Below, one piece after another: positions 3,193-30,796 of a stretch of DNA of 54,840 bases. Each line of letters opens with the position of its first letter. Positions within the stretch are counted from its first letter, which is position 1. The position numbers and the translations under genes are program-made. The notes beneath the pieces were generated by a model. The model worked only from the letters and a program-made list of their open reading frames with translations, was not told the DNA's origin and ran no database searches. The stretch comes from Parcubacteria bacterium C7867-007 (lineage in GTDB: Bacteria; Patescibacteriota; Minisyncoccia; Phycocordibacterales; Phycocordibacteraceae): NCBI GenBank assembly GCA_001189195.1, contig LFCQ01000006.1, positions 1 through 54,840 on the forward strand, written 5' to 3'.

Positions 3193-3266
3193 GCATGCGT
3201 AGCTCAGTTGGTTAGAGCTCGGAGCTTATACCTCCGCGGTCCCTGGTTCGAGTCCAGGCGCATGCA
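3193..3266 (+). tRNA. tRNA-Ile, anticodon UAU
   Basis: Cloverleaf by hand: acceptor GCATGCG/CGCATGC, D arm GCTC-AGTTGGTTA-GAGC, anticodon stem CGGAG/CTCCG with loop CTTATAC, T arm CCTGG-TTCGAGT-CCAGG, discriminator A. No encoded CCA. Confidence 0.85.
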
Positions 3267-3274
3267 CTGATTAA

Positions 3275-3297
3275 GGGTTCGAATCCTAGTCTCCCAG
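3275..3297 (+). other. tRNA 3'-end remnant (T-loop, T-stem 3' half, acceptor 3' half)
   Basis: GGGTTCGAATCCTAGTCTCCCAG parses as T-loop TTCGAAT, then CCTAG, a 7-nt acceptor strand and a discriminator. No matching 5' half lies upstream. Confidence 0.5.
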
Positions 3298-3322
3298 CTC
3301 GCTAATTTGCTATCATCATGGA

Positions 3323-4060
3323 ATGAAATTGATTTCCTTAAATACTTGGGGAGGTAGGGTAACGCAAGACCTCATGGCCTTTATTGAAAGTCATAAAGAG
3401 GTTGATATTTTTTGCTTACAGGAAATTTATCACAACAGGCCAAATGATTTACCAGTTGAAGAGAAGATGTCTCAGTGTGCATTCAACCTGAATAGAGACA
3501 TAGCGGAAAGGTTACCGCATCATATAAATTACTTTAAACCACATATAAAGGACTGGTGGTATGGGCTTGCGGCCTTTATTAAAGAAGATATAGAAATTGT
3601 TAGAGAGGGTGATATTCCGATATACGATGTTCCAGAATATAACGGCGGAGGAAATCATGCCCGCAATCTTCAATATATTGAATTCAAAAAAGAAGGGAAA
3701 AATATAACAGTCATGAATGTACACGGTCTTTGGAACGGTAAAGGCAAGGGGGATTCAGAAGAAAGGCTGAAGCAATCAGACGCCATACTTGATTTCGTTA
3801 AAGGACTGAAGACACCGTATGTGCTTTGTGGCGACTTCAACCTGCGACCCGACACCCAGAGTCTTAAGAAATTTAAAGAGTTCGGCATGCGAGATCTTAT
3901 CGAGGAATACAATATTACCTCAACGAGAACTAGCCTATACGGAAAGGAGGAAGGGTATGCGGATTACGCTTTCATTAGTGAGGGAATTGAAGTAAGAGAT
4001 TTCAAGGTACTTCCTGATGAGGTTTCAGATCACGCGGCGCTATATCTAGATTTTGACTAA
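3323..4060 (+). CDS. Endonuclease/exonuclease/phosphatase (EEP) family protein
   Basis: 245 aa. Motifs: LNTWGG, FCLQE, GDFN, SDH near the C-terminus. Visibly more AT-rich than its neighbours. TATCAT lies 6 nt before the ATG. Confidence 0.8.
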   Translation: MKLISLNTWGGRVTQDLMAFIESHKEVDIFCLQEIYHNRPNDLPVEEKMSQCAFNLNRDIAERLPHHINYFKPHIKDWWYGLAAFIKEDIEIVREGDIPIYDVPEYNGGGNHARNLQYIEFKKEGKNITVMNVHGLWNGKGKGDSEERLKQSDAILDFVKGLKTPYVLCGDFNLRPDTQSLKKFKEFGMRDLIEEYNITSTRTSLYGKEEGYADYAFISEGIEVRDFKVLPDEVSDHAALYLDFD

Positions 4061-4064
4061 TAAA

Positions 4065-4083
4065 GTTCCCACGTCGTACCAAA
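4065..4083 (+). repeat. Direct repeat copy 1 (GTTCCCACGTCGTACCAAA)
   Basis: 19/19 identical to 4471-4489. Begins 5 nt after the EEP stop codon. Confidence 0.9.
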
Positions 4084-4109
4084 ACCCCAGCTCGACAAAT
4101 TTACACACA

Positions 4110-4360
4110 GTGCTACCGTATACGCAGATCGGAAATGCTGTCGCTCATATCACTGGCATGGTGCCCCACACGGGTACGGGCAGCAGAAAGGGATAAACCC
4201 TAACCAACAGCTAAGGTCCATAAATAATGGCTAAGTATTGCTTCTTCAAGCACTCCACGCGAGCGTTCTGGAAAGGCATGAGAACTAAGGAGTAAAGCCA
4301 TTTACCGAAGCTTTGGAGACACAATCTCTCGCCAGCGTTCTGTGAGACTCGTGGACGCGG
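4110..4360 (+). ncRNA. Orphan 23S rRNA (domain II)-like fragment
   Basis: No ORF. Plus-strand blocks resemble remembered E. coli 23S: AGGGATAAACCCTAACCAACAGCTAAGGTCCATAAATAATGGCTAAGT vs GGGAAACAGCCCAGACCGCCAGCUAAGGUCCCAAAGUCAUGGUUAAGU; TAAAGCCATTTACCGAAGCTTTGG vs CUAAACCAUGCACCGAAGCUGCGG; AGCGTTCTGTGAGAC vs AGCGUUCUGUAAGCC. Confidence 0.55.
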
Positions 4361-4429
4361 GTCCTCGAATCACCTCATAGACAAACGGAGAGATTTTAGT
4401 GAGCATCGCTCATGGTCTGGTACGATCCA

Positions 4430-4460
4430 GCCCGCCGCAAACTATCGCGGCGGGCTTTCT
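4430..4460 (+). terminator. Rho-independent terminator closing the 23S-like segment
   Basis: GCCCGCCGC-aaactatc-GCGGCGGGC followed by TTTCT. Confidence 0.75.
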
Positions 4461-4470
4461 ATATAGAAAG

Positions 4471-4489
4471 GTTCCCACGTCGTACCAAA
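4471..4489 (+). repeat. Direct repeat copy 2 (GTTCCCACGTCGTACCAAA)
   Basis: 19/19 identical to 4065-4083. Both copies are also preceded by AAAG, with a 1-nt indel. Confidence 0.9.
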
Positions 4490-4502
4490 CCTCCACTTTC
4501 AG

Positions 4503-5333
4503 CTACTTAGGCAATATATCGATCAATAGATCCGAGTTATAGAAGTCTTCAGCAAGACCACCGAAGGAAAAGGTTTTATCTCCTGCAGTGATAGCAGCAC
4601 CGCCAACCTTAGGATCTGGGTTTGGATTTGAGTGTGAGAAGCCAATGTTGTAGAGAGTGGAAAGTACCCCGATGTTCCCAGTGATAGGAAAACCTGCAGT
4701 CTTCCATTGAGCTTCAATCTGTTTTATATACAGACCTGCATAGAGATAGCTCCAGTAGTGATTGTGTTGGTCTGTCATGCGGGTGAAGCGCTCCTTCTCA
4801 ATATCAGTAGTCTGGAAATCTAGAAGATGCTCATACTGTGCTCCAGGATAGAAGGGAGAGGAAGGATCCTTAAGATGCTGCTCAACTTTAATAGCAGTAT
4901 CCTCTTTCATGCCCATAACACCCCATGAGAATTGTGTTTGTGAACCAAGAATCTTAAGAGGGTAGAAGAACTGCTTGTAGTATTCGCGCTCGGTAAAGAA
5001 GAGACGAAGCTGCTCTGCAACCAGGTTTGCAGTAATAAGTCGTGCAGAAACACCAGAATCTGTAGCAGCTTTGTTTAGTACGGCTTGGTCACGGGTGATT
5101 GCTGCTGAGAGTACCTGCCACTCTTCAGACTCTTTCCAAGGTACCTTTGGTCCAGCTTCCTTGGTTGGGACTACCTGTGCACCTAGGAATGCATCGCGTT
5201 GAATATCAATGATTCCAGTTTCATTAGTGAACCCAAGTTTCACTGCGAAATAGCCGACCATGAGGAATAGACCGATCGCAGCAAAGACATAGAGGAACAC
5301 ATTGAAGCCCACTTTAAAGAACTTTTTAGCCAT
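4503..5333 (-). CDS. Hypothetical membrane-anchored or secreted protein
   Basis: Start moved to the internal ATG (MAKKFFKVGFNVFLYVFAAIGLFLMVGYFAV, N-terminal TM anchor) to avoid overlap with the recG 3' end. No family recognised. Confidence 0.6.
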   Translation of the reverse strand: MAKKFFKVGFNVFLYVFAAIGLFLMVGYFAVKLGFTNETGIIDIQRDAFLGAQVVPTKEAGPKVPWKESEEWQVLSAAITRDQAVLNKAATDSGVSARLITANLVAEQLRLFFTEREYYKQFFYPLKILGSQTQFSWGVMGMKEDTAIKVEQHLKDPSSPFYPGAQYEHLLDFQTTDIEKERFTRMTDQHNHYWSYLYAGLYIKQIEAQWKTAGFPITGNIGVLSTLYNIGFSHSNPNPDPKVGGAAITAGDKTFSFGGLAEDFYNSDLLIDILPK

Positions 5334-5376: not shown

Positions 5377-7551
5377 CTACTCCATATGGAGCCGTTCGTC
5401 TGAACGTATAACAATAGCCTTGAGAAGTGGGTACTTAGATAGTTCAGGATCCTCCTTAATTAGCCTTCCTGCTTCAGTACGAGCTGCCTCGACTAACCGC
5501 ATATTCTTGATAGCCTCCATGGCGATGTCAGAGATACCCCACTGGCGTCCTCCCACCAGTTCGCCTGCACCACGAAGCGCAAGATCATACTCAGCAAGCT
5601 CAAAACCATCTTTGGCAGTGGTGAGTGCTTTTAGACGATCTTTGGTTGCTGGCCCATATGATTCAGGAAGTGCGAAGCAGTATGCTTGATGATTTGAACG
5701 GATCACACGACCACGTAATTGATGGAGTTGAGCCAACCCAAATCGTTCTGATCCTTCGATAAGGATCACTGTTGCGTTCGGTACGTTCACTCCAACTTCC
5801 ACCACGGAGGTAGCAACAAGAATATCAACCTCTCCGCTACTAAATCGTTTCATAACATCCTCTTTTGCTGCAGGAGTCATCTTGCTGTGAAGGATGTCGA
5901 TAGTAGCGTCCTGAAAGACATGCTCCTTTAAACGTTCTGCTTCCGCTTTTACACTCTTTGCTTGCACCGCTAATTCCTTCGTTGGATCTGGTTCATTGAT
6001 ACGTGGGCAAATGACGTATGCTTGTCTTCCTTTTGCCATCTCCTCACGTACTCGTTTGTATGCCTCTTCACGCTTTTCTGGCCCAAGTATTTCAGTAATG
6101 ATTGGTTTGCGTCCCACCGGCATTTCATCAAGCAGAGAGACATCAAGATCTCCGTAAACAGTGAGTGCAAGGGTGCGGGGAATAGGCGTCGCCGTCATGG
6201 AAAGGAGGTGGGGAGAGGTATCACCCTTTCTTGTTAGTTTCTGACGGTGCATCTTTCCGAAACGATGCTGTTCATCGATGATTGCGTACGCGAGGTTCTG
6301 AAACTCTAAAGACTTATATATGAGCGCATGGGTACCGATAACAATAGGGATCTCTCCATTTGCTACCCATTTAGCAAACTGTGCGCGTGATACCTTTGCT
6401 GATTCTTCTCCACGAATCTTTGAAGGAAACTTCCTGCATTCACTACCCGTCATAAGACCAATCGGGATCGGATGATCTTTGAAATAGGAAACAAAAGTAG
6501 AGAAGTGCTGCTTAGCCAGGATTTCTGTGGGACACATGTATGCAACTTGAAGTGTCCCAGAGTTCCTTCCGGGTGGTTGTGAGGTTGCAACCATGTATGC
6601 GGTTGCTGCTGCAACTGCGGTCTTTCCGCTACCCACATCACCTTCCAGCAATCGACGCATGGGATGGGTCTGCTCAAAGTTCTGAATGATGCTTTCTATC
6701 GAACGCTGCTGTGCACCCGTTGGAGGGAAGGGGAATGAATCAATAAATGCACTCAGTGATTTTCGGTCCACATGTACCTGTAAGGCTTTCTCTTCAAGTG
6801 TTTGTGCACGCTCACGCTGCATAGCAAGTTGAATAGCAAACACTTCTTCAAAGGCAAATCGTTTGCGAGCGGCTTCCGAATCATTCTTCTTTAGTGGTGC
6901 ATGAACCCATACCAGTGCGGTTGCAAGAGTCGGCAGATTATATCTCTCAAGAATATCTGCAGGAATCGGATCTTCTATTGCCTCGTGTACGTGTGCCTCA
7001 AATAGTTTCTTCTGTGCATGCAGGAGCCACAAGCTAGAGATACCGCGACTCTCAGGATAGATCGCATAGAGTGCATCCTCAATAATTGCTGGCGTACCTT
7101 CTGTTTTCTTGAACAGAGTATCGTGAACATCTTCTGGTGCAGCAGGTGTTTTATCAATCTCAGGATTCGCTAGGTACATCTTCTTATCCGTACCCGCAAT
7201 GCGTCCTGTTGCTTTCACCACCATGCCGTCAGCGACCATCTTTGCCATGTATGGTTGGGAGAACCACATAAGCTTGATGCGACCACTCGCATCTTCAAGC
7301 CATGCCTCTGCCATGGGCCGCTTGCTCTTCCATGCTTTCTTTGTCTCTGGTTTCCGTATTGTTCCGTATAACGTCACCTCAGTTCCAGGGGTAACGGCGG
7401 CAACAGTACCTGTTGGACCAGCTGCCTCATAGCGTGCAGGGAAGTGATAGAGAAGATCACGAAGCGTGACGATACCAAGGCGCGTTAGGGCGGACTTCTG
7501 GTCTGCCCGTAGGCGGGTGAAGTGTTTGGTGACGAGATCGCTCGGGTGCAT
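5377..7551 (-). CDS. recG: ATP-dependent DNA helicase RecG
   Basis: GDVGSGKT, DEQHRFG, helicase motifs and an N-terminal wedge/OB region. Two adjacent ATGs (7554 and 7551); the second sits 6 nt after a TATAAT box. Confidence 0.93.
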   Translation of the reverse strand: MHPSDLVTKHFTRLRADQKSALTRLGIVTLRDLLYHFPARYEAAGPTGTVAAVTPGTEVTLYGTIRKPETKKAWKSKRPMAEAWLEDASGRIKLMWFSQPYMAKMVADGMVVKATGRIAGTDKKMYLANPEIDKTPAAPEDVHDTLFKKTEGTPAIIEDALYAIYPESRGISSLWLLHAQKKLFEAHVHEAIEDPIPADILERYNLPTLATALVWVHAPLKKNDSEAARKRFAFEEVFAIQLAMQRERAQTLEEKALQVHVDRKSLSAFIDSFPFPPTGAQQRSIESIIQNFEQTHPMRRLLEGDVGSGKTAVAAATAYMVATSQPPGRNSGTLQVAYMCPTEILAKQHFSTFVSYFKDHPIPIGLMTGSECRKFPSKIRGEESAKVSRAQFAKWVANGEIPIVIGTHALIYKSLEFQNLAYAIIDEQHRFGKMHRQKLTRKGDTSPHLLSMTATPIPRTLALTVYGDLDVSLLDEMPVGRKPIITEILGPEKREEAYKRVREEMAKGRQAYVICPRINEPDPTKELAVQAKSVKAEAERLKEHVFQDATIDILHSKMTPAAKEDVMKRFSSGEVDILVATSVVEVGVNVPNATVILIEGSERFGLAQLHQLRGRVIRSNHQAYCFALPESYGPATKDRLKALTTAKDGFELAEYDLALRGAGELVGGRQWGISDIAMEAIKNMRLVEAARTEAGRLIKEDPELSKYPLLKAIVIRSDERLHME

Positions 7552-7639
7552 CATCTAATTATATAGAGAAAAACCCAAGCTTGTTAGCGTACAGGATATA
7601 CTCATTAATAATTTACCTAGTTCGCTATACTATCAATAT

Positions 7640-8851: not shown

Positions 8852-8857
8852 ATTCAA

Positions 8858-8881
8858 AGCCCCCAACCGAAGTCGGGGGCT
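8858..8881. terminator. Hairpin shared by the convergent amidase and RTX-like genes
   Basis: AGCCCCC-aaccgaagtc-GGGGGCT. A second small hairpin, GACGCA-gga-TGCGTC, lies at 8885-8899. Confidence 0.6.
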
Positions 8882-8910
8882 CGTGACGCAGGATGCGTCG
8901 AAGAAGGTGC

Positions 8911-9486
8911 TTAGCCGAAGATCCAGTCGGCGCGGAAGGTGCTGCTGAGGATCACGACCTGATGGTCGCCCTCGTCTCCGAAGACCAGGGTGCGGCCGTT
9001 CAGCTGCACGACCCGATCGTCGTAGTAGAGGCCGGAGAGTTCGATGTAGTCGCCCTCGTCCGGATTGAAGTCCAGCAGCCTGATGATGCCGTGGTCGCCG
9101 TCGTTCAGCACGATGCTGAAGACGTCGGCACCAGGTCCGCCCATGGCGGTGTCGCCGAGACCGACTTCGATGAAGTCGTCGCCACGTCCACCGGAGAGGG
9201 AATCCCCGCCGAAGCCGCCGATCAGAGCATCATCACCGTTTCCGCCGACGAGGGTGTCATCACCGTCGTTGCCGAACAGGTTGTCGTTGTCGTCATCCCC
9301 GAACATCTGGTCGCGACCGGAACCGCCGATGGCGATGTCGTCACCCTCGTTGCCGAAGAAAACGGTGTCATTGTTGCGGCCGAGCTCGTTGAAATCGAAG
9401 TAGTCGTCCCGCACCCCGCCGTAGAACGCCACCTCGGCGAGGAACGGAGCGGGCGGGCTGATGGGTACGATGACGGATTGGCTCAT
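8911..9486 (-). CDS. RTX-type (hemolysin-type) calcium-binding repeat protein
   Basis: Tandem GGxGxD nonapeptides (GGSGRDQMFGDDDNDNLFGNDGDDTLVGGNGDDALIGGFGGDSLSGGRGDD). ATG at 9486 preceded by AAGGAG. Strikingly GC-rich compared with its flanks. Confidence 0.85.
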   Translation of the reverse strand: MSQSVIVPISPPAPFLAEVAFYGGVRDDYFDFNELGRNNDTVFFGNEGDDIAIGGSGRDQMFGDDDNDNLFGNDGDDTLVGGNGDDALIGGFGGDSLSGGRGDDFIEVGLGDTAMGGPGADVFSIVLNDGDHGIIRLLDFNPDEGDYIELSGLYYDDRVVQLNGRTLVFGDEGDHQVVILSSTFRADWIFG

Positions 9487-9555
9487 GGAAGCTCTCCTTG
9501 TTGTTCCGGCCATACAATAACACTATATCAATATAAAGTCAATAGCTGGGTAACA

Positions 9556-10725
9556 ATGCACTATACTGAGGTTTCTAGCCCTATTTCCATGAAACAGACC
9601 AAGAAACAGATCGTTGCAGCCTTTAAGAAAGCAGGAGCTCGTATTGAAACAAAAGGGCGTGTGAAGTTAAAGAATAAGGATGATATTTCCTTGTGGTATA
9701 CACCTGGCGTGGGAGCCGCTTCAGAACACTTGGCTGCACATCCAGAGGATGCGCGCAGTATGTCTGTGAAGAGAAACTCAGTTGCTGTTGTTTCTGATGG
9801 CTCTGCGGTACTTGGTCTTGGAAACATCGGACCCTATGGCGCACTTCCTGTTATGGAAGGGAAGGCACTGATCTTTAGAGAAATGGCAGGCATTGATGCG
9901 TGGCCTATCGTGCTTGATACACAGGATCCTGATGAAATCATTCGTACCGTTCTGGCTATCGCACCGTCATTCGGCGGAATCAATCTTGAAGACATTAAAG
10001 CCCCCCAGTGCTTTGCAATTGAGAAAGCACTCATTGAAAAACTCTCTATCCCGGTGATGCATGATGATCAGCACGGAACTGCAATCATCGTTCTTGCAGC
10101 TCTTATCAATGCGACAAAGGTTGTACAGAAGAAGCTTCCTTCACTACGCGTAATTATTTCAGGAGCAGGAGCCGCTGGCACCGCTGTTGCAATATTGCTT
10201 CGTGCTGCAGGTATTAGCGACATCATTGTGCTCGATCGTGCAGGCGCACTACACGTTGGTCGTGCGGGTATGAATACGGACAAACAAGCACTAGCGTTAG
10301 ACACAAACCCACGAAAGGTTGTGGGTGACCTAGCAACCGTACTCACAGGAGCTGATGTGTTTATCGGTCTTTCAGGTCCAGATCTTCTCACTGCTGATCA
10401 TGTTCGTCTTATGGCAAAGCATGCAATCGTTTTCGCACTCTCCAACCCTGTTCCTGAAATCATGCCAGATGAAGCAAAGAAAGGTGGTGCCGCTGTTATA
10501 GGGACAGGCCGTTCGGATTTTCCTAATCAGATAAACAACGCACTCGTGTTTCCAGGCATATTCCGAGGTGCCCTTGATAAAGGGGTATCAAGCATTACAC
10601 AGGAGACAAAGATACGTGCTGCAAAGGCAATTGCTGCGCTTGTCGCTAAGCCCACTGCAACCAAGATTGTTCCAGATATCTTTGATAGGCGCGTGGTCCC
10701 AGCGGTTGCCAAGGCCGTTCGCTAG
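9556..10725 (+). CDS. NAD(P)-dependent malic enzyme (short form)
   Basis: LWYTPGV, MHDDQHGTA, GAGAAG and NPVPE motifs. The start is ATG 9556 or 9589. The upstream part of the 610-aa ORF is antisense shadow of the RTX gene. Confidence 0.88.
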   Translation: MHYTEVSSPISMKQTKKQIVAAFKKAGARIETKGRVKLKNKDDISLWYTPGVGAASEHLAAHPEDARSMSVKRNSVAVVSDGSAVLGLGNIGPYGALPVMEGKALIFREMAGIDAWPIVLDTQDPDEIIRTVLAIAPSFGGINLEDIKAPQCFAIEKALIEKLSIPVMHDDQHGTAIIVLAALINATKVVQKKLPSLRVIISGAGAAGTAVAILLRAAGISDIIVLDRAGALHVGRAGMNTDKQALALDTNPRKVVGDLATVLTGADVFIGLSGPDLLTADHVRLMAKHAIVFALSNPVPEIMPDEAKKGGAAVIGTGRSDFPNQINNALVFPGIFRGALDKGVSSITQETKIRAAKAIAALVAKPTATKIVPDIFDRRVVPAVAKAVR

Positions 10726-30472: not shown

Positions 30473-30509
30473 GTTGCAATCTTCATACCTTCCTATATAA
30501 TCCCAAAAT

Positions 30510-30796
30510 AGCGGGGTAGAGGAGTGGTACCTCGGGAGGCTTGAATTATTCGGGCGTGCGTAGAAGCAATTTTACGTAAGATCATCTGCCAAATTCGGTG
30601 AAACCCTCACGTCAGAAATGACGAAAGGCAATGCCGAGCCAAGCCTGCTTCGGCAGGAAGGTGTAGAGACTAGACGGTAGACATCCCTATGGGATGAAGG
30701 CATAGTCCAGACCACAAATTCGTCCTCGGACGAAGCAACGAAAGTTGTAGCGGCAAGCATAACCTCCAGACGCCGGTTCAATTCCGGCCCCCGCAA
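30510..30796 (+). tRNA. Intron-containing tRNA, spliced anticodon CAU (Met or lysidine-Ile2)
   Basis: 5' exon (A)GCGGGG-TA-GAGG-AGTGGTA-CCTC-G-GGAGG-CT. 3' exon CATAA-CCTCC-AGAC-GCCGG-TTCAATT-CCGGC-CCCCGC(A). The joined anticodon loop is CTCATAA. A normal cloverleaf forms only after 30542-30757 is removed. Confidence 0.8.
30542..30757 (+). ncRNA. Group I intron, IC3 (tRNA-intron) type
   Basis: Core strings AAATTCGGTGAAACC, GGCAATGCCGAGCCAAGC and GAAGGTGTAGAGACTAGACGG match the remembered Azoarcus tRNA-Ile / cyanobacterial tRNA-Leu intron core. P1 gives a U-G wobble at the 5' splice site, the terminal G serves as omega-G, and P10 can form as ATAA/TTAT. Confidence 0.75.

Follow-up and report, generated by a model that had tools for sequence, protein, structure and literature searches.

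The question raised by this locus is why a short intergenic gap should hold what looks like a piece of 23S rRNA. The window, i.e., the whole analyzed stretch of 54,840 nt (Parcubacteria bacterium C7867-007, contig LFCQ01000006.1), is Parcubacteria/Paceibacteria chromosome, and its gap 4061–4502 had been described in a sequence-only reading as an orphan 23S-like segment bracketed by perfect direct repeats and closed by its own terminator, for which a fossil rRNA operon, a mobile cassette with att-like repeats, or an expressed rRNA mimic or decoy was proposed.

Conserved neighborhood and the inserted block

The gene order smpB–ftsH–tRNA-Ile(UAU)–276-aa gene–recG is conserved among relatives. The tRNA-Ile(UAU) gene (3193–3267, plus strand) was identified by ARAGORN and Rfam, and the 276-aa gene, conserved in Paceibacteria, lies at 4503–5333 on the minus strand. 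In the loci L090, L091/L092, and L093, which encode a 276-aa protein with 78–82% identity, no bases separate the tRNA from the stop codon of that gene, and in most of the 48 syntenic loci the two are 2–60 bp apart; similarity of the window to the relatives' loci stops at position 3268. Since the tRNA abuts the stop codon in close relatives, the 1234 bp from tRNA-Ile to that stop codon (3269–4502) are a lineage-specific insertion, bounded on the left by the 3′ end of the tRNA and on the right by the stop codon, and the ancestral site was empty. Thus, the search of related genomes for an empty site, which had been suggested earlier, gave a positive result, and the block resembles an integrative element in that it adjoins the 3′ end of a tRNA gene and is missing at the corresponding site of relatives. 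In other relatives, the same junction is occupied by different, unrelated inserts, and it is consequently an insertion hot spot.

The block consists of a scrap resembling a tRNA 3′ end, a gene of the EEP (endonuclease/exonuclease/phosphatase) family, and the 442-bp gap 4061–4502; its neighbors are ftsH, a 95-aa ORF, the 276-aa gene, and recG. The EEP gene (3323–4060, plus strand; Pfam PF03372, E-value = 1 × 10−16) has a G+C content of 0.37–0.44 vs. approximately 0.48–0.50 in the flanks, and its nearest homologue is 59% identical and located in other contexts. Homologues of the EEP gene were found near tRNAs in L084 and L094, and in the Parcubacteria locus L084, a perfect 17-nt duplication of the tRNA-Tyr 3′ end surrounds a 157-bp insert. 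A linkage of the gap RNA to the EEP gene was considered and rejected, as the homologues examined (57–59% identical) had no such RNA downstream.

The gap contains two ORFs only, of 47 aa each, in agreement with the earlier statement that it lacks a substantial ORF. A decayed protein gene was also considered, and tblastx against all related loci returned nothing below E = 0.9. Among known RNAs, tmRNA was sought because smpB is 3.3 kb from the gap; none was identified by ARAGORN, and there was no Rfam tmRNA match even at E ≤ 10, nor any match of either program to RNase P or another known RNA. The possibility that the segment is an assembly artefact, raised earlier, is contradicted by JGI 3300001199 and Logan SRR2043728, two further assemblies that are 100% identical across the region.

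According to one of the earlier proposals, the gap is the relic of an rRNA operon once resident here, whose spacer tRNA was tRNA-Ile. A tRNA-Ile is indeed located 800 bp upstream, and a 23S-like patch is present, but the tRNA-Ile of rRNA spacers is of the GAU type, and the anticodon here is UAU, so that the tRNA had been wrongly taken for one typical of 16S–23S spacers. In addition, approximately 45 related Paceibacteria loci have this tRNA flanked by ftsH and the 276-aa gene, with rRNA nearby in none of them, and the close relatives that keep the junction show an empty site, which contradicts such an origin. The window itself contains no rRNA gene and no 16S, 5S, or further 23S signal; the absence of an rRNA operon had been noted correctly, and a fossil operon is extremely improbable and was rejected.

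The 23S-derived patch

The search with the Rfam model of bacterial LSU rRNA (LSU_rRNA_bacteria, RF02541) aligned 4204–4316 (plus strand) with model positions 1032–1205 (26.2 bits, E-value = 1.3 × 10−6, obtained in a local search of 186 nt and below the gathering score of 50 bits). The covariance test proposed earlier therefore yielded a significant match, which nevertheless stays below the score of a bacterial LSU rRNA gene and disappears once the query is enlarged to 651 nt or to the whole window. The reciprocal covariance model R1, built from the module in the window, identified E. coli 23S 972–1167 (36 bits) and, over 817 kb of related-locus DNA, matched true 23S H40–H41 only (four matches, E-values from 1 × 10−7 to 6 × 10−4 in 1.6 Mb). 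The patch, including AGCGTTCTGT, was also aligned to real 23S by nhmmer, and every BLAST match to E. coli lay within 23S. All 94 of 94 BLAST matches to plasmids fell on query positions 126–176 (window 4186–4236); PLSDB shows no RNA genes beneath them, and they were taken to be plasmid-borne rRNA operons. Thus, the likeness to 23S H40–H41 is significant, reciprocal, and collinear in both sequence and structure, as is to be expected of a fragment derived from rRNA.

The same comparisons bear on whether the resemblance could have arisen by chance, without rRNA ancestry, or by a mis-join of contigs. The Rfam score below gathering and the loss of the match in queries of 651 nt or more would fit chance, and a chain of short HSPs against E. 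coli 23S was equalled by 2 of 150 shuffles. An ungapped 29-nt block, however, had a score of 17 against E. coli 23S, where neither the 150 shuffles nor the 244 genomic controls gave more than 13, and none of the genomic controls reached the score of the HSP or of the chain; the Rfam E-value, which combines sequence and structure, and the reciprocal model also stand against chance. A chimera is at odds with three identical assemblies, and a genuine rRNA joined in error would give a far higher score and run on into the remaining 23S. Both origins are very improbable. A homology of the whole gap to E. coli 23S 886–1322, covering the repeats and equating the terminator with H47, is attractive by eye and in a permissive alignment, but this gapped alignment is not significant (4 of the 300 shuffles did as well, as did 3 of the 244 genomic controls) and was discarded.

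The rRNA-like stretch is confined to approximately 4186–4349 and includes H40, H41, what is left of H42, and the beginning of H46. An H40-like hairpin (AGGG-AUAAA-CCCU, 4189–4201, plus strand) was found in the minimum free energy fold of 4186–4320 and in the R1 alignment to E. coli H40. It is followed by the H41-like helix of 23S domain II (4204–4316, plus strand; RF02541 and R1), in which H42–44 are missing: in the Rfam LSU alignment, 99 model positions (H42–44) are replaced by 38 nt, and the collapse of the L11/GTPase-center region suspected earlier is therefore real. The apex that takes their place (4238–4293, plus strand) faintly resembles the 3′ strand of H42 according to nhmmer alignments to L087 and L089. 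The approximate 3′ limit is set by AGCGTTCTGT (4334–4343, plus strand), an exact collinear match to E. coli 23S 1194–1203, which we take to be the start of H46 in the helix numbering. Of the four 23S blocks originally named, the second and third (H40 and both strands of H41) were confirmed and the fourth is this exact 10-mer, whereas the first, CACACGGGTACGGG, carries no rRNA signal, nor does the remaining sequence between the repeats. No signal of other LSU domains or of the GTPase-associated center (H42–44) was detected, LSU signal being lacking in 4040–4215 and 4300–4502, and Rfam found none in the flanks inside the repeats. The 23S resemblance is thus genuine but much smaller than claimed, and since no more than approximately 165 of the 387 nt that the repeats enclose are rRNA-like, they are not the tight brackets of an rRNA segment that they had been thought to be.

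Comparison with 23S H40–H41 (RF02541) shows that 4186–4320 corresponds to E. coli 972–1167 in sequence, structure, and order of elements, with the H40 hairpin and an H41 stem containing conserved internal loops. In contrast to 23S, the patch represents approximately 165 nt of a 2.9-kb molecule, lacks the H42 5′ strand, H43, H44, and most of H45, lies outside an rRNA operon, and cannot work as rRNA. All 17 of the 17 modelled H41 pairs are canonical, with none flagged as non-canonical in the Rfam alignment, and in 7 of the 17, as read by eye from the alignment, both sides differ from the Rfam consensus (G-C to A-U). The conserved unpaired nucleotides UAAGGUCC and ACCGAAGC are retained in the H40–H41 module. 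The patch is consequently either young or under constraint, because a long-decayed pseudogene would show broken pairs. In comparison with shuffles, the H40–H41 module alone folds better (z = −2.3), whereas the values are +1.0 (worse) for the 5′ flank, −1.5 for the 3′ flank, and +0.2 for the apex, none of which was judged better than shuffles. On its two sides, the patch is bordered by approximately 100 nt and 80 nt of sequence that is neither related nor structured, and a GC-rich hairpin comes next.

Bacterial genomes contain orphan or partial fragments of rRNA genes (rRNA pseudogenes), and the patch resembles them as a short, isolated stretch of rRNA outside an operon with internal deletions; it differs from them in its location in a dated, lineage-specific tRNA 3′-end insertion, in the att-like repeats, and in the fully paired helix. 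The internal deletion might also be explained if the patch were a reverse-transcribed (cDNA) fragment of 23S, in which H42–H44 were lost when the polymerase skipped the base of the three-way junction and which was then captured as filler DNA. A shortened H41 apex was seen in just three metagenome contigs (L087–L089), all of them 23S sequences lacking the same H42–44, so this class of deletion arises readily; L088 is plainly chimeric, carrying an ORF for a eukaryote-like pyrophosphatase, in the manner expected for cDNA artefacts. The annotated genes, however, include no reverse transcriptase, the apex deletion is not clean (56 weakly H42-like nucleotides are left), and slippage of DNA replication could give the same outcome; a cDNA origin is therefore unlikely.

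Direct repeats and junction motifs

The sequence GTTCCCACGTCGTACCAAA is present exactly at 4065–4083 and 4471–4489, in two copies in total. No further copy was found in the window even with three mismatches allowed, and 0 of 100 shuffles reached two copies, so that the perfect 19-nt direct repeats reported earlier are exact and unique in the window. The repeat widens to 28 nt with 25/28 identity (4062–4089 vs. 4468–4495). A near-copy of the 19-mer with three mismatches occurs in L090, in opposite orientation within the ORF of a small membrane protein, which is compatible with chance (approximately 0.16 expected by our own estimate).

Three junction motifs, all on the plus strand, can be distinguished in the block. 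X1 combines a tRNA 3′-end-like left arm with arm "a". The left arm (3275–3297), recognized by reading the sequence, contains the T-arm GGTTCGAATCC and the acceptor-like TCTCCCAG; it matches the T-arm of tRNA-Ile at 10 of 11 positions, which was equalled by 20 of 2000 shuffles, and is the sole T-arm-like scrap, from a tRNA other than tRNA-Ile. The first copy of arm "a", CCCAGCTCGCTAATTT (3293–3308), was revealed by a repeat search, and its alignment with 4086–4101 had a score of 22 (shuffles 11.3 ± 1.9; 2 of 2000 reached 22; p ≈ 0.001). X2 (4062–4101, GTTCCCACGTCGTACCAAAACCCCAGCTCGACAAATT) consists of arm "b" (4062–4089, exact core 4065–4083) followed by the second copy of arm "a" (4086–4101), and X3 is the second copy of arm "b" (4468–4495, exact core 4471–4489). 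The candidate crossover core is approximately 4 nt, (C/T)CCA. The X1 tRNA-like arm is absent from the empty sites of relatives, which makes an extra step necessary, i.e., a lost second tRNA gene or the import of the whole array from a donor.

Among known systems, the block comes close to tandem arrays of integrative elements or cassettes at tRNA 3′ ends (attL–element–hybrid att–element–attR) and to integron cassette arrays. Points of likeness are the exact insertion at a tRNA 3′ end, the empty sites of relatives, the pairwise sharing of arms among three junction motifs (order B–P′, P–P′, P–B′), and small promoter-less cargo units. The block differs in having no integrase within or beside it, in the size of its units (only approximately 0.8 and 0.4 kb), and in repeats that are unlike the 3′ end of the resident tRNA-Ile, with a shared core of approximately 4 nt; the "b" repeat is unrelated to that end and hence no duplication of it. 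It also lacks, by our own reading of the sequence, the integron core site GTTRRRY. The EEP gene is the only gene of the block, which thus encodes no integrase, and no recombinase was found among the genes identified within approximately 3 kb to the left and 6.7 kb to the right. No further copy of the gap sequence was detected in the window or in relatives. The earlier proposal of a mobile cassette with att-like repeats accordingly holds in outline (empty sites, tRNA 3′-end insertion, arm pattern), whereas neither a recombinase nor a second copy was found.

Other kinds of mobile DNA were also considered. A MITE or IS-type element was rejected because the ends lack inverted repeats, the repeat is 19–28 nt, and a single copy is present in the window and relatives. 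Comparison with phages gave only a tRNA match and that with plasmids only plasmid-borne 23S matches, so that a phage or plasmid origin was dismissed; the repeat and the gapped pattern were not found in viral contigs.

We infer a tandem-integration origin of the block. The 1234 bp, which in this lineage alone separate the 3′ end of tRNA-Ile(UAU) from the convergent 276-aa gene and its stop codon, would represent a pair of small non-autonomous cassettes joined by tandem site-specific recombination at the tRNA 3′ end, in the order X1, EEP gene (the putative cargo of the first cassette), X2, non-coding cassette, and X3. The 19-bp direct repeats would then be the shared "b" arms of two att-like junction sites. 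The putative non-coding cassette carries an approximately 165-nt descendant of bacterial 23S domain II that has kept H40, H41, the remnant of the H42 3′ strand, and the opening bases of H46; the H42 5′ strand, H43, H44 (GTPase-associated center), and most of H45 are deleted.

Passenger or working RNA

The patch is followed by a terminator-like structure (4429–4470, plus strand) that consists of a GC-rich hairpin (4429–4456; 10 bp, nine of them G-C pairs) overlapping the palindrome CTTTCTATATAGAAAG (4455–4470). The strong intrinsic terminator described earlier stands as far as the hairpin is concerned; the U-tract that forms its tail, TTTCTATATAG, is weak and belongs to the perfect 16-nt palindrome 4455–4470. 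No sigma-70-like promoter was found in 4061–4200, promoters of CPR being poorly known. Searches of 817 kb of related loci and of viral contigs returned no homologue of the RNA. The scan of metagenomes with a pattern also gave no homologue, which is weak evidence given that the collection lacks even this organism's own contig, and the three contigs matching the gapped pattern (L087–L089) were 23S sequences with H42–44 deleted, at least one of them chimeric, and none of the three a homologue. Because there is no homologue, there is no covariation, and in these incomplete collections, the patch does not have the profile of a conserved structured ncRNA.

It should be noted that the L20 operators mimic the junction of 23S H40/H41 (PMC1865079). 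The patch might therefore be a functional rRNA mimic, the H40–H41 module of which, transcribed as the EEP 3′ UTR or released by processing, would regulate a protein that binds H40/H41, with L20 as the known example, or sequester it as a decoy or sponge. The intact H40 hairpin, junction, and H41 helix with its canonical pairs, the retained unpaired nucleotides, the folding of the module by itself better than shuffles, the hairpin that closes the unit, and the binding of L20 to H40/H41 mimics in mRNA leaders (PMC1865079) are consistent with this. The module shares the H40/H41 junction with the L20 operators (E. coli rpmI–rplT; Bacillus L20_leader, RF00558), but these are only structural look-alikes located upstream of infC/rpmI/rplT, whereas the patch is rRNA-derived sequence itself, lies downstream of EEP away from infC–rpmI–rplT and from any r-protein gene, and is followed by a convergent gene. 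Moreover, there was no L20_leader match in Rfam, tblastn detected no L20, L13, L21, L10, or L11 in the window, the patch is restricted to a single lineage within a recent insertion and has neither homologue nor covariation, and no sigma-70-like promoter was seen in the gap, with no structure signal in the rest of the 387 nt. A functional mimic is accordingly unlikely. Distinctly unlikely, as a further step, is a non-autonomous cassette of approximately 400 bp mobilized in trans between CPR tRNA 3′ ends, the payload of which would be a minimized H40–H41 with its own terminator and the RNA of which would be a decoy for an H40/H41 factor, e.g., titrating L20 or shielding the ribosome from a factor directed at this site. 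For the decoy reading, nothing was found beyond the intact helix.

The searches for homologues and a promoter and the folding of the flanks gave no indication that the patch has been selected as an RNA gene, and it is most likely an inert passenger, i.e., a functionless rRNA pseudogene fragment, rather than a working RNA gene. The hairpin would merely stop read-through transcription from tRNA-Ile/EEP, in which case the patch would at most be part of the EEP 3′ UTR. Taken as a whole, the explanation by insertion of tandem cassettes with a functionless 23S-derived passenger is given somewhat better than an even chance of being correct. Set against it are the fully paired H41 helix, the lack of a recombinase among the genes identified beside the block, the crossover core of just approximately 4 nt, the extra step that the X1 tRNA-like arm calls for, and the limited reach of the metagenome scan for homologues.

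For searches of this kind, the locus provides a practical warning: a real rRNA-derived patch was missed by Rfam at default settings and by a permissive search of 651 nt, and its detection required a search confined to approximately 190 nt. On the reading favored here, insertions recur at the 3′ flank of tRNA-Ile(UAU) in Paceibacteria, a hot spot at which very small promoter-less units can stack, and scraps derived from rRNA can ride as passengers in the streamlined genomes of CPR. A mobile expressed H40–H41 decoy, if real, would add a novel type of RNA payload and connect mobile DNA with ribosome assembly in a new way.

Gene order and the insertion at the tRNA-Ile junction

The gap (non-coding positions 4061-4502) lies between a gene of the endonuclease/exonuclease/phosphatase (EEP) family and a convergent gene encoding a 276-aa protein. 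When the ORFs on either side were scanned with Pfam and PHROG, the gene order proved to be smpB (317-763, - strand), ftsH (821-2815, + strand), tRNA-Ile with anticodon UAU (3193-3267, + strand), the EEP-family gene (3323-4060, + strand), the hypothetical 276-aa gene (4503-5333, - strand) and recG (5377-7554, - strand), with an amidase and then a malic enzyme beyond recG. The 276-aa protein had more than 1000 homologues, and those with names belonged to Parcubacteria, Paceibacterota or Patescibacteria (best: Parcubacteria bacterium C7867-008, 84% identity); therefore, the window is a CPR bacterial chromosome and not a phage. A tRNA was the sole match of the phage collection to the window. At Rfam gathering thresholds, the whole window contained three tRNAs, one group I intron and no rRNA. 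The intron (RF00028, 51 bits, 30533-30750) splits a tRNA gene in the anticodon loop (30508-30795, + strand), with exons legible on both sides (GCGGGGTAGAGGAGTGGTACCTCGGGAGGCTTGAA ... CCTCCAGACGCCGGTTCAATTCCGGCCCCCGCA); this tRNA was not called by ARAGORN.

Eighty genomic loci were retrieved with the 276-aa protein profile. Across Paceibacteria, tblastn and ARAGORN revealed a syntenic group of recG, the 276-aa gene, tRNA-Ile(UAU), ftsH and smpB. The tRNA was present in 45 of the 49 intervals from ftsH to the 276-aa gene, this conservation across about 45 related loci being seen in either orientation, and in most loci a stretch of 2-60 bp separated it from the stop codon of that gene. Where close relatives keep the junction (L090, L091/L092 and L093; 276-aa protein 78-82% identical), the tRNA 3' end abuts that stop codon, and homology to the window stops at 3268 and restarts at 4503. 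Since the two are contiguous in these relatives, the 1234 bp of 3269-4502 were inserted in this lineage only. In the closest relative (84% identical), the region is rearranged and the 1234-bp block is also absent; nothing like 4061-4502 was found in the relatives. Other relatives had unrelated inserts at the same junction, mostly a single ORF and some with extra tRNA-like scraps, and the junction is therefore a hot spot. Such pieces follow tRNA-Ile directly in, for example, L057 (more than 100 nt between two tRNA-like ends) and L017 (a tRNA 3'-half), which may be a sign that the hot spot once held, or in some cases still holds, a second tRNA gene.

The G+C content of the EEP gene (0.37-0.44) is below that of its surroundings, and the nearest EEP homologue shares only 59% identity, compared with 95% for RecG and its counterpart in the nearest genome. 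EEP homologues occurred in varied contexts without the RNA of the gap, and two of the three examined were near tRNA genes. It should be noted that a block of about 700 bp (8852-9590; G+C 0.62 versus about 0.48 for the genome), located between the amidase and malic-enzyme genes, encodes a 200-aa RTX calcium-binding-repeat protein (8911-9513, - strand). It looks like a second lineage-specific insertion because it is apparently missing beside the malic-enzyme gene in L090 (spacing 47 bp) and L093. The ORF called as a 610-aa 'malic enzyme' is probably too long.

Homology of the gap to 23S rRNA

The description of the gap as 23S-like held for about 165 nt (4186-4349), whereas no rRNA likeness was detectable in the first block proposed or in the other ~220 nt enclosed by the repeats. 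With Rfam, the outcome depended on the region searched: no LSU match was obtained at gathering thresholds or in 3950-4600 under permissive settings, but in a search limited to 4165-4350 the LSU_rRNA_bacteria model aligned positions 1032-1205 with window 4204-4316 (26.2 bits, E = 1.3e-6; below the gathering score of 50). No rRNA signal was given by Rfam in 4040-4215 and 4300-4502. The match comprises complete helix 41 (H41) of domain II and 38 nt in place of the 99 model positions of H42-H44, and the GTPase-associated centre is indeed collapsed, as had been supposed. No non-canonical pair was flagged; in the alignment read by eye, all 17 H41 pairs were canonical, and in seven of them both bases deviated from the consensus (G-C to A-U).

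A reciprocal covariance model was built from window 4186-4320 with its MFE structure, which independently shows an H40-like hairpin and the H41 stem. In the 817 kb searched, this model matched only true 23S H40-H41 regions, namely those of E. coli 23S (positions 972-1167; 36 bits, E = 2e-5) and of three 23S contigs from metagenomes (30-45 bits), and it detected no second copy of the module in the window or any related locus. In nhmmer comparison with real 23S, homology reached window 4349, with AGCGTTCTGT (E. coli 1194-1203); the alignment suggests that the 'replaced' apex is a remnant of the H42 3' strand. Single-sequence searches gave weaker scores: BLAST against 5426 E. coli genomes matched only 23S genes (48-51 nt, E about 5), nhmmer with the whole gap against ~1.6 Mb matched E. 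coli 23S in a single block of 47 nt (E = 0.14), and the reverse search of E. coli 23S against the window returned nothing at E <= 1. All 94 plasmid BLAST matches fell on query 126-176 (window 4186-4236) and were taken to be plasmid-borne rRNA operons, although PLSDB gave no RNA genes beneath them. A gapped alignment extending over the entire gap was not significant against E. coli 23S and was discarded.

That the resemblance arose by chance is very improbable: an ungapped 29-nt block scored 17, against a maximum of 13 in 150 dinucleotide shuffles and 244 other 442-nt window pieces, and a collinear chain score of 36 was reached in two of 150 shuffles and in no genomic control. Thus, about 165 nt (4186-4349) derive from 23S: H40 and H41 with a portion of H42 and the first part of H46. 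An assembly artefact is likewise hardly credible. Identity to the window across the region was 100% for a JGI contig (3300001199; over 6872 bp) and a Logan contig (SRR2043728; 1524 bp), these contigs, perhaps from the same or related samples, being independent by assembler and not necessarily by reads; a mis-join to a genuine rRNA operon was excluded because the score is low and further rRNA is absent. The module is homologous to 23S H40-H41, yet it fails every test of an rRNA gene, and a fossil rRNA operon is a most unlikely source.

Repeats, hairpin and junction motifs

As claimed from the sequence, the gap has no substantial ORF (longest <=47 aa) and an exact 19-bp direct repeat, GTTCCCACGTCGTACCAAA, is located at 4065-4083 and 4471-4489. 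No further copy occurs in the window, even at three mismatches, and two copies were found in 0 of 100 shuffles; with its flanks, the repeat extends to 28 nt (identity 25/28). A near-copy, GTTCATACGTCGTACCAAG (three mismatches, opposite orientation), lies at 6212-6230 of L090 within a 94-aa membrane-protein ORF adjoining tRNA-Ile, and F-x-R-R-T-K would be encoded by either sequence; as a true homologue it was rejected, being judged compatible with chance. At the proposed terminator lies a hairpin (4429-4456; 10 pairs, nine of them G-C), but its U-tract tail, TTTCTATATAG, is only modest. This tail is part of a perfect 16-nt palindrome, CTTTCTATATAGAAAG (4455-4470), directly adjoining the GC-rich hairpin on one side and the second repeat copy on the other; the palindrome could be a protein-binding or recombination site instead of a terminator tail.

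Three junction motifs were identified in the 1234-bp insertion. In X1 (3275-3308), a tRNA T-arm/acceptor-like scrap, GGGTTCGAATCCTAGTCTCCCAG, runs into arm 'a', CCCAGCTCGCTAATTT, with an overlap of 5 nt; in X2 (4062-4101), arm 'b', AAAGTTCCCACGTCGTACCAAAACCCCA, runs into arm 'a', CCCAGCTCGACAAATT; X3 (4468-4495) contains arm 'b' alone. The b-b similarity of X2 and X3 is the 19-bp repeat, and the a-a similarity was significant (2 of 2000 shuffles, for two pre-chosen 55-nt regions). Read in order, the arms are (foreign arm + a), (b + a), (b + foreign arm), as would result if site-specific recombination had placed two units in tandem at one site (B-O-P', P-O-P', P-O-B'), with a putative switch point at (C/T)CCA. 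We infer this origin with reserve, because the core is very short, because no recombinase gene lies within or beside the 3269-4502 block, and because the tRNA-like arm of X1 is missing from the relatives' empty sites; consequently, either the site formerly had a second tRNA gene or the whole array was brought in as one block. In the Parcubacteria locus with the nearest EEP homologue (L084, 3017-3276), tRNA-Tyr is followed by a 157-bp insert containing an inverted partial tRNA copy and bracketed by a perfect 17-nt duplication of the tRNA-Tyr 3' end, TCCAACCCGGCGCACAA. The structure is an att-like scar left by a tiny insert, and the duplication supports the tandem-integration reading.

Origin of the rRNA-like module

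The most likely account, held with moderate confidence, is that a small tandem insertion at the tRNA-Ile 3' end would have the gap as its second unit, a non-coding one, in which the rRNA-like core, presumably captured from a 23S gene or from its cDNA and having lost H42-44, rides as a passenger, and the hairpin at 4429-4456 would stop transcription coming from tRNA-Ile/EEP. The insertion behaves like tRNA-targeted integrative DNA but has no integrase and no repeats derived from the target tRNA. Specifically a cDNA origin is doubtful, at a low probability; it is suggested by the metagenome contigs, since the only ones in which the H41 apex is shortened are 23S sequences that lack this H42-44 region too, and one is an evident chimera. 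These three contigs (L087, L088 and L089) lack roughly E. coli 1040-1125; in L088, E. coli-like 23S is joined to a eukaryote-like inorganic pyrophosphatase ORF, and in L087 the 23S 3' end is fused directly to the 23S 5' end. They are probably cDNA or assembly artefacts, and they indicate that this deletion class arises repeatedly.

The main rival is a functional mimic of the H40/H41 junction, where r-protein L20 binds (PMC1865079) and which L20 operators imitate. The perfectly paired helix and the conserved loops agree with it, whereas conservation, a promoter, structured flanks and linked r-protein genes are all lacking, and neither by position nor by Rfam is the module an L20 leader; we regard such a mimic as unlikely. 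As a whole, the gap has a more stable fold than its shuffles (z = -3.5, + strand), and sub-region folding traced this to the H40-H41 module (z = -2.3) and the GC hairpin, the values for the 5' flank (4084-4189), 3' flank (4317-4428) and apex (4238-4293) being +1.0, -1.5 and +0.2, respectively. No sigma-70-like promoter was found in the gap; therefore, nothing points to a structured RNA of ~380 nt.

Present in a single organism and with no positive sign of function, the module is an orphan rRNA-derived fragment within a tRNA-adjacent insertion, slightly odd in that its helix is intact and its repeats are neat.
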